Source of the DNA: Dictyostelium discoideum
Lineage: Eukaryota
NCBI GenBank assembly: GCA_000004695.1
Contig: CM000151.3
Span: 3,776,001-3,840,000 of the forward strand
Direction: 5' to 3'
DNA length: 64,000 nt
Each line of letters opens with the position of its first letter. The stretch's first letter is position 1. Positions 32,567 to 45,996 of this stretch are shown here, piece by piece. The translations under genes and the position numbers were made by a program. The notes below the pieces were generated by a model, which saw nothing but the letters and a program-made list of their open reading frames with translations, did no database searches and had not been told where the DNA came from.

Positions 32567-33243
32567 AAAAATACTTATTAAAATAAATATTTAATTTTAT
32601 AATTTTTTATTTAATTCTATAAATAACTTGGATTTTTTTATTTTTTATTTTTAAAATTAAAATTTTTTTTTTTAAAACCAATATTCCCTCTCGTTTTTTC
32701 AAAAATAAAAAAAAAAAAAAAATAAAAAAAATTAAACGATTTAGATCCCCAACTCTCTATATCTAAAAAATGTTTAAAAAATTAAAAAAAACTTATTCCA
32801 TAAAAAAAAAAAATTAAAAAGAAAATCATATTTTTACGAAATCTATAAAAACCGGATTTATAAATCTGTTTTTTTTTTAAACAACCAACCACCCAACTTG
32901 TTATTTAAAAACAAAATTAGTTATGTTTTGATTAAAACTAAATAAAAATAAATTTTTATGTTTTAATTTAAAAATTCTTTATGTATATTTTTATTAATTG
33001 TTTTTTTATTTTTTTTTTTTTTTTTTATTTTTTTATTTTAATTCCAAGAATTAAAGTCATGACCAACCAACAAATAATTTTTTCACAATTTGGAAAAATA
33101 AAAAAAAACAGAATGGTTACACTCATTTTTTTGAGTATTTTAGAGCTCTATTTATCTACTAATTCATATTAAAAATAAATAAAATTAGATAATTTTTTTA
33201 AAAAAAAAAATATTTAAATAAAATAATATTAAAATTTGTAAAA

Positions 33244-33281
<38 letters not shown>

Positions 33282-33415
33282 GCCAAATTTAAATTTTTTA
33301 TTTTTTATTTTTTTTTTAAAAAAAAGGAGGTCAAAGAAATAATATTTCATTCAAATAATATTTCATTCAAATAATATTTCATTCAAACAAAAAAAAGAAA
33401 AATTATTTACCGATT

Positions 33416-39112
<5,697 letters not shown>

Positions 39113-39182
39113 AAAACAAATATGTTTGCCCCTTTATAAGGGTATCTTTAAAAAAATGGATATTTTATCGGTTTTTATTTTA

Positions 39183-39868
39183 TTAATATAATGGCATACA
39201 TGGGCTTTCATAAAAACATATAACCTTTACAAAATTTTCAAATTGTGAGGCTGATTTTATAAACTCCTCACGAGACATTCCTTTTTGATAATCTGCAATA
39301 TGACGACACGACGTAATAAAGACTGCTTAGTCAATAGCGTCATTGATTGAATAACCTAAACCTTTACCACAACATACAACTATATTAACTAATTAATCTA
39401 CCTCTTCTCTTTCAAGATAACCACTTTTATCACTATCAAACAAATCAAAAAAGATTCCTAATTAATCTAAAGTTGGCGCTTTGGCCATTAAATATAATGC
39501 TGTTATAAACTCTTTTACATCAATTACTCCATTCTATTTTTTTTTTTTTTTTTTTTTAAACCAATTTTAACAATAATTAAAAATTAATATAAATTAATAT
39601 GTATTTTTAATTATTACACTAAATACTAAAAATTACTTACACCATCAGAATCAAATAATGTAAACATTCTAACCATCGAAGCTTCATCCCAATTACTAAA
39701 ACGAACCTTGAAGAATTTGATAAACTCCTCTTGTGAAAAACCAGATTTTTTATCAGATGCTGCTGCTACTTTAAAGTCTTTAATTAATTGTTCAATATCC
39801 TCTGGAGTATATTTGGTTTTTTTAATTATTTCTTCTTTCTCCTCTTTTGATAGTTTTGAATTTCCCAT
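39183..39868 (-). pseudogene. Pseudogene copy of the adjacent myristoylated NCS-like EF-hand gene. Exon 1 (39641..39868) is intact. Exon 2 (39183..39533) carries three in-frame TAA stops.
   Basis: Exon 1 MGNSKLSKEEKEEIIKKTKYTPEDIEQLIKDFKV...LFDSDG|GTAAGT is 85% identical to the paralog. Exon 2 aligns codon-for-codon with the paralog but has TAA at 39462-64, 39393-95 and 39327-29 (at paralog codons AAA, AAA, TTT), plus an in-frame 7-codon insertion. Confidence 0.65.
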
Positions 39869-40300
39869 GTTTTAAATGTATTGATTTTAAAAAAAAATAA
39901 AATTTTTTGAAAGTTTTAAATAACAACTTAGAAAGTTTTTTTTTGATTTGTTTTTTTTATTTTTTTTTTTCAAAAAAAACATTTAAAAAATATCTTTTCA
40001 GCAAAATTTTTTGGGTTCAGATTTTTTTTTTAATCATTTTCATTTAACTTTTTTTTTTTTTTTTTTTGGGCAACCCAAAAGTAGTTTTTAATAATTTCAT
40101 TTTGAATAATAAATGATAATAAAAAAATTATTATAAAAATAATCATAATAATAAATTTCTAAATAAATTATTATTGCATAATTTAGTTTTTTTTTTTTTT
40201 TTTTTTTTTTTTTTGAGACCATATATAAGAATATAATCTTTAACCCCATTTTTTTAATAATTAATAGTAAAATAATTTCATTTTTTTTATTATTTTTATT

Positions 40301-40995
40301 TTAATATAATAATTGTTTGCAAGGGTTGTCATAGAAACATATCATTCTAACGAACTTGTCTGATTGAGAAGCTGATTTTACAAATTCTTCACGAGAAATT
40401 TTTATGGAAGTGATAGAATAAACAAAATCAATTGCTTCACTTGTTGTGTAACCCATTGCACTGCTACATACAACTACAATATTAACTAATTTTTCAATTT
40501 CTCCAGCTTCAAGATAACCACTTTTATCACTATCGAATAAATCAAATAAAAATCCTAATTTATCTGTAGTTGGTGCTCTTGTCATCATATAAAGAGCTGT
40601 AATAAACTCTTTAACATCAATCACACCATTCTTTTTTTTTTTTTTTTTATTATTATTTTTTTTAAAATTAATAAGTTTTAAAATATATATATACATATTT
40701 TTAAATTAATAAGTTTTAAAAAACATATATTGGTTTAAATAATTTAATAATATTATAAATTACTTACACCATCAGAATCGAATAATTTGAACATTCTAAC
40801 CATTGATGCTTCATCCCATTCGTTGAAACGGATTCTGAAGAATTTGATAAATTCCTCTTGTGAAAAACCAGCTTTTTTGTCTGATGCAGCAGCAACTTTG
40901 AAATCTTTTGTTAATTGTTCAATATCACCAGAGGTATATTTGGTTTTTTTCATTATTTCATCCTTTTCTTCTTTGGATAGTTTTGAATTTCCCAT
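40301..40995 (-). CDS. N-myristoylated EF-hand calcium-binding protein, NCS/recoverin-like, 185 aa; join(40768..40995,40301..40630).
   Basis: MGNSKLSK myristoylation consensus. EF-hand loops DSDGNGVIDVKEF and DSDKSGYLEAGEI. GTAAGT donor at 40767 and acceptor (A)nAG at 40631, both phase 0. Confidence 0.85.
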
Positions 40996-41434
40996 TTTTG
41001 AATGTAATTATTTACAAAAAAAAGAAAAAAATAATGATAAATAATAATAAAAATTAATAATAAAAAAAAAAAAAATGATTTCTCTTTCCAAAAAAAAAAA
41101 AAATTCGATAAGTTGAAAAATCTAAAATATTCACCACTAAAAATAAAAAATTACAATTTTTTTTATTTGAAAATTTTTCTTCATAAAAAAAAAAAAATCG
41201 CTATCAATTTTAAAATTATTATAATTAAAAATTAATAAAAAAAGTGGAAAACTCAATAATTGACCATATTTTTTGAATCTTATAATTTAAAATTAAGAAA
41301 AAGGAAAGAAAAAAAAAAATATAAAAAAATATAAAAAAAAACCTCTTAACTGTGTGGATTGAGTTTGGTACAAAAATTAGGTTACAAACAATCCTTTTTT
41401 TTCATTATTATTGCGCCATACGTATTTATTAAAT

Positions 41435-42020
41435 TTATTCTTGAATAGCGATATCAGAGCATTGATAAAAATCTGGCTCTGGTTCTCCTGCATTATTACT
41501 TATATATCTAACTCTTAATACACAACTTTTGCAAGTTTGTGTTGGAAGGGTAACCTATTTTTAGATTTATTTTAATTAGTTAATTTGAAATGAAAAAAAA
41601 AAATAAAAATAAAAATAAAAATAAATATAATAGTAAACTTACTGAAACACTATAATTGGTTTGAGTAACCATATCCCAAGCATTGAAATCATCAATTGTT
41701 GGACTAAGTACAATATAGTCACCATTATCGCCATCGTATGAGAGTGAAACATCTAAATAACCAGGATTTGGTTTATACCAATGATTGTAATTTTGTTGGA
41801 AGAAAACTTGGATGGTAGATTCAGGGCTATATGATTTAACTGGTGCTCCAGTTGTTGTATTACCACAATTACTACTAACTCTATAACATGCGTTGTCACC
41901 TGGTTGAATTGGAACTCCCCAATTTGGTTCTCTTTGTGGTGGATCAAATAAACATAGATGTGCTAAAGCAAAACTATTTAACTGTAAAATTATAATAATA
42001 GCAACAATATATTTTATCAT
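41435..42020 (-). CDS. Secreted 165-aa protein with a mature N-terminal His, LPMO(AA10)-like; join(41643..42020,41435..41554).
   Basis: Signal peptide MIKYIVAIIIILQLNSFALA, with cleavage predicted before HLCLFDPPQREPNWGV (compare AA10 H-G-x-V-x-x-P-x-S-R). An internal His sits in NHWYKPNPGY. The C-terminal exon ends DFYQCSDIAIQE, resembling the AA10 FYxCxDV terminus. GTAAGT donor at 41642 and acceptor AAAAATAG at 41555 are both phase 0. The ORF-track start at 42161 lies in a poly-T run. Confidence 0.65.
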
Positions 42021-42301
42021 TTTGAACAAATAATAAATAAAAAATAAAATAACTTTTTTTTTTAGTTTTTTTTTTTTTTCAGAACACAACAGAAATTTAA
42101 AAAAAAAAAAAATAAAAAAAAAAAATGAAATGGTTTTGGAAAAATCATTCGAATGCATCATTCGAATAATATCAAAAAAAAAAAATCAAAAAAAATCAAA
42201 AAAAATCAAAAAACCACTGTTTGAAAAAAAACTAAAAAACTAAAAAAAAAAAAAAAACTTTTTTTTATCATAAAACCATATACAAAAAAAAAGTATATAG
42301 A

Positions 42302-42844
42302 ATGATTAAATATTCAATTTTATTAATTTTATTCATTGGTATCCAAAGCATTTTATCATCATACAATTGTTGTGTCCCAAGTCAATGGCAAGGTTCATCA
42401 TTGAGCTATGATGATTCTGGTAGAGAGTTCACAAAGAATTATTATTATGACGCAGATAAATTATTAGTTAGAATCGATATAATTTATTCAGATGGTAGTT
42501 TTAATCAAAGTACATACAGTAGTTATGCAAGTTTAACTCAAACAGGTACAGAATGGGTAATGAATAATTTGGATGGCACTTGTTACCAAACTGGACCAGA
42601 TTTTTGGAATGCTCAATGTTTTGGTGATAAATATGGTGTTCCATTCTCTAGTTCCACCAACAAAATCAATACTTTCTCTAACCCATCCAATGGAATCACT
42701 GTTATTACCGATATATATTGTTTACCAGTTTCAATTACCAATAAACTTGCAAACCTCCAATTTAAATTTTTCAACACTCAAGCTCATGTTTCTGATGAAT
42801 CTGTGTTTAGTGCCCCACCAGCTTGTAGCAGCAGCAATAATTAA
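42302..42844 (+). CDS. Ependymin-related secreted protein (EPDR-like), 180 aa, single exon. It is transcribed divergently from the LPMO-like gene.
   Basis: Signal peptide MIKYSILLILFIGIQSILS. The mature start CCVPSQWQGSSLSYDDSG matches ependymin C-x-A-P-x-x-W-E-G-R…LSYDG. The C-terminus FSAPPACSS matches ependymin VFTPPSTC. Confidence 0.65.
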   Translation: MIKYSILLILFIGIQSILSSYNCCVPSQWQGSSLSYDDSGREFTKNYYYDADKLLVRIDIIYSDGSFNQSTYSSYASLTQTGTEWVMNNLDGTCYQTGPDFWNAQCFGDKYGVPFSSSTNKINTFSNPSNGITVITDIYCLPVSITNKLANLQFKFFNTQAHVSDESVFSAPPACSSSNN

Positions 42845-43066
42845 TTAAAATTTATTAATAGCGTTCAAAATAGAAATAAAAAAAAACTGTTTTAAAAAGT
42901 GATAAAAAATAAAGAATTATTCCTTTTGGAATATTTTCTCAAACTACACTTTCTATTCATTAATGTTTTTGTTTTTTTTAACATCTTTAAAGGGAAATGA
43001 ATTATAAAAACTGAAATTATTTGGATTTGGAATAAAAAAACCTTCTATTTTAAAAATAATAATTTC

Positions 43067-43097
<31 letters not shown>

Positions 43098-43293
43098 GGT
43101 CGAATATAATTTGAAATTTGGTATATGGAAGTAAATGATATTTTTAATGACATAAGATAATTTTGTTATTAATTCTTTTAATTTTCTTTTAATTAAAAAA
43201 ATAAAAATATCGTGATATTTCCAGCAAAGCAAAACTTTTCGAAAAAAAAATATATAAATTTTTTTTTTAAAAAAAAATAGTAAACAGATTTAT

Positions 43294-43325
<32 letters not shown>

Positions 43326-43334
43326 AGAAAGAAT

Positions 43335-43590
43335 ATGAAAGAATTAAAATTATTATTTTTATTAATAATTGTTGTATTACAATATTGTATGGTAGATGGC
43401 GCAGTAATAAATTTTGTACCAGTTCTATCAGACTCAAGATAGTAGTGTTGAACAACCAAATTCATCTTCTGCATCATCCTCTTTAGAGGGCTTAAATTGT
43501 ACTGAACCATATCAATATCAATCAAAATGTTATGAAATTGCTTCCGAAGCTTATACTATAAGTTATTGTTATGATCCAAATTATAATTAA
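43335..43590 (+). pseudogene. Small secreted Cys-rich protein ORF interrupted by a +1 frameshift or stop (possible pseudogene or sequencing indel).
   Basis: MKELKLLFLLIIVVLQYCMVDGAVINFVPVLSDSR* in frame 0. It continues in frame +1 as QDSSVEQPNSSSASSSLEGLNCTEPYQYQSKCYEIASEAYTISYCYDPNYN*. No GT..AG pair of plausible length reconciles the two frames. Confidence 0.3.
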
Positions 43591-44040
43591 TTTTATAAAA
43601 AAAACTAATAAAAAATCCATAATTTTGATATCTAAAGTTTTAGGGATTTATTTATGTTTCAGTGAGTTATTAATATATCCCTTTTTTTTTTAAAATGAAT
43701 TTTAAAAACAATTTATAATAATTTCTTATTATTTTTATTGTAATTTACTAAAAATTATTTATTTATACAAAAAAAAAAAATAAATAAACTTGTTTTATTT
43801 TAAGTATTTATTGAATGAAATGATAATAAAAAACAATCAAAATAAATATTATAATATATTATTGACTAAATATATTAATATCTGAATAAATGTTATGAAT
43901 ATAAATAAAAAAAAAAAGGTAGTAAAAATACCTTTTAATAAAATCAAAATAAAACCAAAGTATAGAACAATAAAAAAAAAAAAGTAAATTAAAACTTTGA
44001 ACCTTTTGGGTCTTTTTTATTTAAATTTAAGAAAAAAAAA

Positions 44041-44076
<36 letters not shown>

Positions 44077-44080
44077 TTAA

Positions 44081-44235
<155 letters not shown>

Positions 44236-44319
44236 ATTTACTATTATGTTTTTTTTTTTTTTTTAAAACTTTTCAATTTCTAGTGATATCATATTTTTGT
44301 GTTTATTTTTTATTTTTCA

Positions 44320-44356
<37 letters not shown>

Positions 44357-44359
44357 TTA

Positions 44360-44734
44360 TTAAAATAAGGTTGCAGATTTAAACTGTTTACTAATTGAAA
44401 GTGTTGGTGGTGGTGAAATTGATAGTAAACCAAGCTCAGCGCCTTGTTGGAATAGATCGCTTTCGGTGAATGCTTGGTTCATAGTTATTGGATTATGAGT
44501 ACGTATTGGAGGTGTCAATGGTTCAGAGCCATTGAAGCAATTCAATGGTGAATAGCTATGAATAAAAAGTGGGATTTTCATGTCAAGTGTTCCATCGCTA
44601 TGATTTTCGGTAATAGTATCTATGGTTTGACTTAACAAAATATTATCATTACTATTACTTTCATCCACTTTGGTGTTAATGTTATTATTATTATCATTAT
44701 TATTTGAATTATTATTATTATTATTATTATTTGA

Positions 44735-44768
<34 letters not shown>

Positions 44769-45553
44769 ATGGTAGTGATGATTTCACTACCCTTTTCACT
44801 ACCACTGATAGCTCCTTGCCCATTATTATATGAAGGCGAAATGGAAACCCTACTTTCAAAGGTATCCAAAAAACTAATTGTTTGTGGTTGGGATGATGTT
44901 GGTGTTTGCGTTTCTAATTTACATTTTAAAATATTATTGACAATATTGTTTGGTGTTATATATTCGGTGTTTATATTTTCATTATCATCGATCTGTATCT
45001 CATTGTTTCGCAAATTTGAACAGGATTCGATATTTATCGCTATTTTACTATTGTTATTGTTAACAAGTGAGTTAATGTTATTTTTACTATTTACTTTACA
45101 TGTCATTATAGTTTTATTATTATTATTATTATTATTAACTTTACTATTATTATTTAAAAAACTAACCAATTTAGGTTTGGTTGGAGTTGGTCTAATGCTA
45201 ACAAGTTGTTGTGGAGAGCTTAATGATTGTCTTATTGGTGGTTGAAAATTGTAGTCATCATTTTTGTTGTTGTTATTATTATTGTTGTTGTTGTTATTAT
45301 TATTATTACTATCTACAGAATCATCGTATATATTAAAAGAATGTAAGATGATAGTTTGAATTTCATTTCCTGCTTCCTCAAATAAACTCTCTTCAACAAA
45401 TTTTGTACAGTTGGTTGATGTTGATCTAGAGTGAGAGGGTTTCCATGGTTTGGGTGCGACAATCTTCTCCAAGTTATTATAATCTATACTTATCCCATGG
45501 TCACCCATAAAGGTACGAGGAGAAAATGACCTGTTTGGCATTATTTTGTTCAT
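44360..45553 (-). CDS. Hypothetical Asn-rich protein.
   Basis: 397-codon ORF. The non-repetitive N-terminus is MNKIMPNRSFSPRTFMGDHGISIDYNNLEKIVAPKPWKP. No recognised domain. Further 3' exons cannot be excluded. Confidence 0.5.
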
Positions 45554-45622
45554 TCCTTTATATTTTTTTGTTTTTTCTTTATTATTTTACTTCTTTATTT
45601 TATCTTTTTTTTTTTGTATTTT

Positions 45623-45653
<31 letters not shown>

Positions 45654-45753
45654 CTTATAATCTTTTTTTTTTTTTTTTTTTTTTTATTTGTTTGTTTGTT
45701 TGTTTATTTACAAAGGTTGGGAGAGTATTTAAATATTTTCTCTTTTCTTTTTT

Positions 45754-45784
<31 letters not shown>

Positions 45785-45996
45785 TTAGTTCTTGTTTCTT
45801 TAAAGTCTGGTAACAATAACGGCGAGGAAAAAAAAAAAAATAAAAAAAATAAAAAAAGAAAATAAAAAAAATAATAAAAAAAAAAAAAAAAAAAAAAAAT
45901 AAAAATAAAAATAAAAAGTTGTTTTTGATGGCACTTACATTTAATTTTTTATTTATTTTATTTAAAAACTAATATATACAATTAAAACTAAAATAA

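Follow-up and report, generated by a model that had tools for sequence, protein, structure and literature searches.

On the minus strand of a 64-kb stretch of Dictyostelium discoideum AX4 chromosome 2 (hereafter the window, by which we mean the whole of the DNA analyzed; its G+C content is about 22% throughout), positions 40995-39183 are occupied by two head-to-tail EF-hand genes, each composed of two exons and identical in structure (Table 1). Both copies start with the sequence MGNSKLSKEEK, end their first exon with ...LFDSDG, enter the second exon through an acceptor AG followed by AATGG, and use TAA as their terminator. All the features by which an earlier note had described this tandem pair are present where it had placed them, and the reading of the DNA also bears out that copy B carries three in-frame TAA codons, each of them preceded by GAT or GAC. 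The truncated product of 76 amino acids envisaged in the same note has to be corrected: the first stop is codon 100, so that a 99-residue peptide would result, and 76 is the length of exon 1.

Table 1. Genes, stop codons and sequence landmarks of the cbpK-like/cbpK locus, in window coordinates
Feature	Position	Strand	Remarks
Copy A, cbpK-like	40995..40301	-	185 codons, intact; ATG at 40995
Copy A exon 1	40995..40768	-	228 nt
Copy A intron	40767..40631	-	donor GTAAGT
Copy A exon 2	40630..40301	-	
Copy B, cbpK	39868..39183	-	192 codons; ATG at 39868
Copy B exon 1	39868..39641	-	228 nt
Copy B intron	39640..39534	-	donor GTAAGT
Copy B exon 2	39533..39183	-	contains three in-frame TAA
TAA, codon 100	39462..39464	-	AAA (Lys) in six of six other assemblies; Lys in the cDNA protein
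TAA, codon 123	39393..39395	-	AAA (Lys) in six of six other assemblies
TAA, codon 145	39327..39329	-	TAT (Tyr) in six of six other assemblies
Patch of differences, nearly all private to AX4	39105..39485		near-perfect identity on both sides
21-base homopolymer, A21 in gene sense	39537..39557		at the 3' terminus of the cbpK intron; first discrepant base follows 52 bp downstream
30-base homopolymer, T30 in gene sense	39082..39111		cbpK 3' UTR; the patch ends here; shorter in the other assembly

The locus is the known tandem pair cbpK-like/cbpK of the AX4 strain. In a protein search, the translation of copy A was identical to the AX4 protein XP_643890.1 (UniProt Q86IV8, 'Calcium-binding protein K-like'). 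Copy B is cbpK (UniProt Q86IV7, 192 aa; cDNA AY655132/AAT72748, 'NCS-1/frequenin-related protein'), and its translation, once the three TAA codons are taken out, equals AX4 XP_643889.2 exactly (189 aa, 'calcium-binding protein'). For the cbpK cDNA, Coukell et al. 2004 is reportedly the work that is named. In the survey of Kollmar (BMC Genomics 2006; PMC1634994), from whose table the assignment of the locus to chromosome 2 is taken, cbpK appears as 'Frequenin2' with 192 aa and falls into the frequenin class of the tree, cbpK-like is listed as 'Frequenin6, cluster with cbpK', and neither of the two is marked as a pseudogene, although other CBP genes are. The recognition of a tandem pair of NCS-like EF-hand genes, which holds in Pfam and phmmer searches, was hence already published (PMC1634994), and both the pair and a workaround for the stops are already present in the databases.

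This workaround takes two forms. The RefSeq protein XP_643889.2 leaves out exactly the three TAA codons, while UniProt Q86IV7.2 and the cDNA protein AAT72748 carry K100, K123, and Y145. With its TAA codons removed, copy B differs from UniProt Q86IV7 at seven positions, all of which lie within the patch (39105..39485; Table 1) to which we return below. At the level of the DNA, the reference differs from the cDNA-like or AX2-like cbpK sequence by three TAA codons, four or five missense, and seven synonymous differences. The UniProt entry is itself a mixture, in that Q86IV7.2 retains the Ala93 and Glu23 of the genome and has cDNA-like residues at seven further discrepant sites; residues 23 and 93 of the cDNA protein are Gly and Thr.

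Pfam assigns both genes to generic EF-hand families only. A phmmer search of the PDB gave end-to-end alignments of CbpK to NCS-1, neurocalcin delta, and hippocalcin (E-values of 1e-15 to 1e-11), closely followed by calcineurin B, CBL, KChIP, and recoverin; the alignment with the Schizosaccharomyces pombe NCS-1 structure 2l2e (E 2.7e-15) joins residues 3-184 of CbpK to residues 5-186, and those with neurocalcin (neurocalcin delta, E 2.2e-14) and hippocalcin extend over residues 3-181. With about 190 amino acids, four EF-hand motifs, and these end-to-end alignments, CbpK thus resembles the family of NCS-1/frequenin, neurocalcin, hippocalcin, recoverin, and KChIP, with which it also has in common a Gly at position 2, a degenerate EF1, and canonical EF2 and EF3. 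As read from the sequence, 12-residue Ca2+-binding loops of the canonical type are present in EF2 (DSDGNGVIDVKE) and EF3 (DSDKSGYLEREE), and EF1 and EF4 are degenerate. CbpK departs from the family in its degenerate EF4, in the EF1 region (KVAAASDKKSGFSQEEF), which lacks the Cys-Pro (CPxG) signature, and in the N-terminus MGNSKLS, where residue 6 is Leu instead of the usual Ser/Thr of the MGxxxS/T motif. N-myristoylation of CbpK is plausible but, with Leu at position 6, not assured, and 'NCS-like' is a fair description of what is predicted to be a functional 192-aa Ca2+ sensor of the NCS/frequenin class. The canonical NCS-1 homologue of Dictyostelium is a different gene, ncsA (PMC1634994). The tandem paralogue cbpK-like (Q86IV8) has the same two exons and intron position, is 73% identical to CbpK, and lacks a block of eight residues.

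AX4 and AX2-214 both descend from the isolate NC4. To compare the locus between strains and species, we used orthologous DNA from six newer assemblies, three of them from D. discoideum (L001, L002, L006; L001 is GCA_054883475.1), two from D. cf. discoideum (L003, L005), and one from D. citrinum (L004). These stem from BioProject PRJNA1300491 and combine Illumina and Nanopore sequencing (Holland et al., PNAS 2025; PMC12745789). The strains treated as D. discoideum in that study are AX2-214, CR116C, and OT3A, M4B and S6B are regarded as possible cryptic species, and three D. citrinum strains and D. dimigraformum were included as well; AX2-214 was sequenced at 79x coverage, compared with 8x for the AX4 reference (PMC12745789). 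Outside the patch, L001 is 99.97% identical to the window, whereas L002 and L006 reach about 96.3% (and about 91% inside the patch). From this difference, together with the strain list of the paper, we infer that L001 is strain AX2-214.

Over window positions 33169..45891, the pairwise alignment with L001 shows only five substitutions and some homopolymer-length differences in the approximately 12.3 kb outside the patch. Within the 381 bp of the patch, 23 substitutions and three indels are found. A 6.7-kb multiple alignment gives the same picture, with mismatches between the window and L001 at 2 of 6288 positions outside and at 24 of 374 positions inside (Poisson p ~1e-46; Fisher p ~1e-28). 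Of the 26 sites that distinguish the window from L001, 21 show a base found in the window only, with the five other assemblies agreeing with L001, and this applies to all three TAA codons as well; at the remaining five sites the other genomes are mixed. L001 was the odd one out at none of the 26 differing sites in the multi-assembly alignment. Intact proteins of 192 aa are encoded in three other D. discoideum assemblies, in two cryptic sister species, in D. citrinum, and in D. dimigraforme, and K100, K123, and Y145 are present in the D. citrinum and D. dimigraforme orthologues as they are in all 192-aa orthologues. In the protein search, no Logan or ENA assembly of D. discoideum carrying cbpK was found.

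A few differences lie elsewhere. Within copy A, window position 40388 belongs to the Glu codon of ISREEF, which is GAA in AX4 and GAT or GAC (Asp, giving ISRDEF) in L001 and the other genomes of the discoideum clade; the difference may be a genuine AX3/AX4 variant or one more isolated error of the reference. Between the two copies, at the edge of an A-run, a C at position 40069 is private to AX4 (A in L001 and three other assemblies). All other indels between AX4 and L001 concern the lengths of long A or T runs (33271-33278, 44071-44075, 45646-45666, 45781-45784), as is typical of homopolymer-length uncertainty in one or both sequencing technologies. The gene that is convergent to cbpK starts about 90 bp downstream of it and extends over window positions ~33200-39090 on the plus strand (~1861 aa; minus strand of L001 at L001:6779-12446). 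In L005, the deposited models for this region comprise two genes, and the 481-aa product of one of them contains AAA_11/AAA_12 (Upf1/Sen1-like helicase) domains. The T30 run sits in the short 3' intergenic region that this neighbor shares with cbpK.

The patch itself pays no attention to the border of the coding region and runs from exon 2 into the 3' UTR. The density of differences is highest in its last 70 bp (39170..39105), where about eight substitutions and three indels (seven bases in total, at 39110-39129) are followed abruptly by identity. Transitions and transversions stand at roughly 8:15, close to the ratio of about 1:2 expected of random miscalls, and in 13 of the 23 changes the base lost is an A of the gene-sense strand. 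Among the 15 substitutions that fall into the coding sequence, seven are synonymous, five missense, and three nonsense. Synonymous changes (7/15) are somewhat over-represented, since eight or fewer amino-acid-changing events out of 15 arose in only 3-4% of simulations; this excess is not expected of purely random miscalls. At least three stops were obtained from 15 substitutions in this A+T-rich exon in about 5% of the simulations; it is the clustering of the substitutions that departs far from chance.

The regular appearance of the stops, all of them in the context D-TAA, has a simple basis. The true sequence contains the decamer GATAAATTAG at codons 100 and 123, and in both places the window has GATTAATTAG, with the same A-to-T change. 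Two of the three stops, and with them the D-TAA regularity, are accounted for because one and the same decamer was altered identically twice. The underlying D-K and D-Y contexts belong to the helices that flank the EF3 loop and to the first helix of EF4 (LDKL, VDKL, IDYA).

How the two copies have evolved was assessed with dN/dS values calculated according to Nei-Gojobori. Between the AX2-like cbpK and that of other strains of the discoideum clade, dN/dS ranges from 0.07 to 0.31 (dS 0.06-0.13); between D. discoideum and D. citrinum it is 0.10 (dS 0.43), and between copies A and B it is 0.13 (dS ~1.1). These values indicate purifying selection on the cbpK orthologues and constraint on both copies. 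With a dS of about 1.1 between its products, the duplication is old, and it probably predates the split from D. citrinum. In D. citrinum, copy A is absent between the LPMO_10-like gene and cbpK (L004:2075-3648), where it has probably been lost, since the dS of the paralogues (~1.1) exceeds that of cbpK between D. discoideum and D. citrinum. For D. dimigraforme, we found a cbpK-type match only. A similar correction applies to the 7-codon insertion that the earlier note had attributed to copy B. The difference in length is real; it consists of an 8-codon block and one codon near the C-terminus, and the block is not an insertion. It is present in all cbpK orthologues, those of D. citrinum and D. 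dimigraforme included, and also in Tieghemostelium lacteum, and it is missing from copy A, which lacks eight residues in the loop region of EF4 (the RHIADYQKG region). The block thus represents the ancestral state, from which copy A departs by a deletion; structurally, the intact copy is the derived one. The copy A of L005 (L005:1949-2793, locus tag prefix ACTFIY) has cbpK-type bases over its first ~85 nt (EEIIKKTKYTPEDIEQL), as a short tract of gene conversion by copy B might have left them. Read with the standard intron, it runs through a frameshift into its C-terminus (...ICFYETLPNNYY...), which the deposited model of 173 aa avoids by a different structure.

Three in-frame stops behind a perfect exon 1 invite the view that cbpK is a decaying duplicate throughout the species, perhaps one that still yields a truncated N-terminal EF-hand peptide, and a young pseudogene was indeed one of two alternatives left standing in the earlier note. 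We consider this scarcely credible. A pseudogene should show its stops reproducibly in the DNA of the organism, yet all six assemblies and the cDNA protein lack the three of them; it should show relaxed constraint, with dN/dS near 1, yet values of 0.07-0.31 are found among the orthologues and 0.13 between the paralogues. The intact 192-aa proteins of the other D. discoideum strains, the cryptic species, D. citrinum, and D. dimigraforme, the full-length cDNA protein AAT72748, and the age of the duplication (dS ~1.1 between the copies vs 0.43 for cbpK between D. discoideum and D. citrinum) all speak against it. The young-pseudogene alternative accordingly fails, given that the stops and some 20 other differences are private to the reference, the duplication is old, and the 8-codon block is ancestral. 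Equally hard to entertain is a reading in which the TAA codons are decoded, by readthrough or by a suppressor tRNA that reassigns them, or are lost from the mRNA. The RefSeq protein, which omits exactly these three codons, would at face value imply 3-nt excisions; to our knowledge, introns of 3 nt without GT..AG cannot be spliced. Reassignment or programmed readthrough calls for one consistent meaning of the codon and for a different terminator, but both genes genuinely end in TAA, and the orthologous positions hold Lys, Lys, and Tyr, to which no single decoding fits. Furthermore, the related genomes have sense codons at these sites, the cDNA protein reads K, K, Y with nothing deleted, and ARAGORN detected no tRNA gene within the 64-kb window. 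Somewhat less remote, and still very unlikely, is a mis-assembly in which reads from elsewhere in the genome, stemming from a third, diverged paralogue or pseudogene, ended up at cbpK. A divergence of about 6% that is limited to one segment would fit a collapsed paralogue; however, the protein search revealed no close one, the nearest protein in D. discoideum being copy A at 73%, copy A shares none of the private bases, and the patch takes in unique 3' UTR, with indels that increase towards the homopolymer. Gene conversion from copy A was rejected, as no private base matches copy A at aligned positions. We also rejected RIP-like mutation: the changes are mostly A-to-N transversions and occur in unique 3' UTR sequence as well, and exon 1, where the two copies resemble each other most, is untouched. 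The 'hypermutable hotspot' known from Dictyostelium (PMC12745789) concerns recombination and duplication at tgrBC on chromosome 3, not clusters of point mutations.

There is a small chance that the differences are real in the AX4 clone and go back to a local burst of mutation, for instance through error-prone break repair, that struck the AX3/AX4 lineage once it had parted from AX2, which would make cbpK a recent strain-specific pseudogene. The odd bases do stand in the deposited reference, and the slight synonymous excess and the Ala93 of UniProt Q86IV7.2 are left unexplained by pure miscalling. On the other hand, such a burst would have to place some 24 substitutions, and indels besides, into 380 bp over decades of culture, at a mutation rate for AX4 of 2.9e-11 per site per generation as measured by Saxer et al. 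(2012; PMC3466296), and to leave only five substitutions in the flanking 12 kb. About 24 true mutations in 380 bp beside 12 kb of near-identity cannot have arisen by ordinary mutation on a laboratory time scale. The spectrum is rich in transversions and random-like, an identical change occurs twice in one decamer, the boundaries of the patch coincide with long homopolymers, and annotators have handled the stops as errors. The specific form of this reading, a kataegis-like burst that put some 24 point mutations along with small indels into just 380 bp between two long homopolymers and silently knocked out cbpK in the AX3/AX4 laboratory lineage, has a chance that is marginally smaller again; if it were true, cbpK would have been silently lost in the most widely used reference strain.

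By far the most probable explanation is that the TAA codons are not biological and that they belong to a low-quality stretch of the 8x Sanger AX4 reference. We conclude this because the differences are clustered, nearly all private, extend beyond the coding sequence, and are absent from L001 and from the cDNA protein. A patch of base-call or assembly errors should be private to one assembly and missing from an independent assembly of the same lineage, and it should be clustered, sharply bounded, indifferent to the borders between coding and non-coding DNA, and accompanied by indels; all of this is observed at cbpK. The assembly error that the earlier note had offered as its other alternative is in this way strongly supported by the private, clustered nature of the differences and by their absence from L001, the related genomes, and the cDNA protein. 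About 24 wrong base calls and a few indels would thus have entered a stretch of some 380 bp in the Sanger era, and three of them would have produced TAA codons. Sanger reads that crossed the A21 or the T30 run may have degraded, so that a low-quality tail was accepted where coverage was thin. This explanation has weak points of its own. An average coverage of 8x predicts that several reads start within a 425-bp island, so that thin coverage is an assumption, and neither the synonymous excess nor the mixture in the UniProt entry with its Ala93 is explained by pure miscalls.

That the AX4 reference contains residual errors is known. Saxer et al. (2012; PMC3466296) counted 1917 candidate differences from the reference, of which 1916 were common to the AX4-derived lines, and they ascribe these shared differences to reference errors, to differences of the ancestor clone, or to mutations that preceded the experiment. 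The cbpK patch would be one such place; as the cbpK locus does not figure in the text consulted (PMC3466296), the connection is drawn by analogy.

The patch at cbpK implies no new biology. Anyone who works from the AX4 reference DNA or from the 189-aa RefSeq protein uses a wrong CbpK sequence, from which three residues are missing and in which four or five are wrong, and this affects the design of primers, guides, and knock-ins, mass-spectrometry databases, and structure prediction. For cbpK, the AX2-like sequence of 192 aa should therefore be preferred to the AX4 model. More generally, clustered in-frame stops in the AX4 reference, especially where they lie between long homopolymers, are more likely to be errors than to mark pseudogenes.
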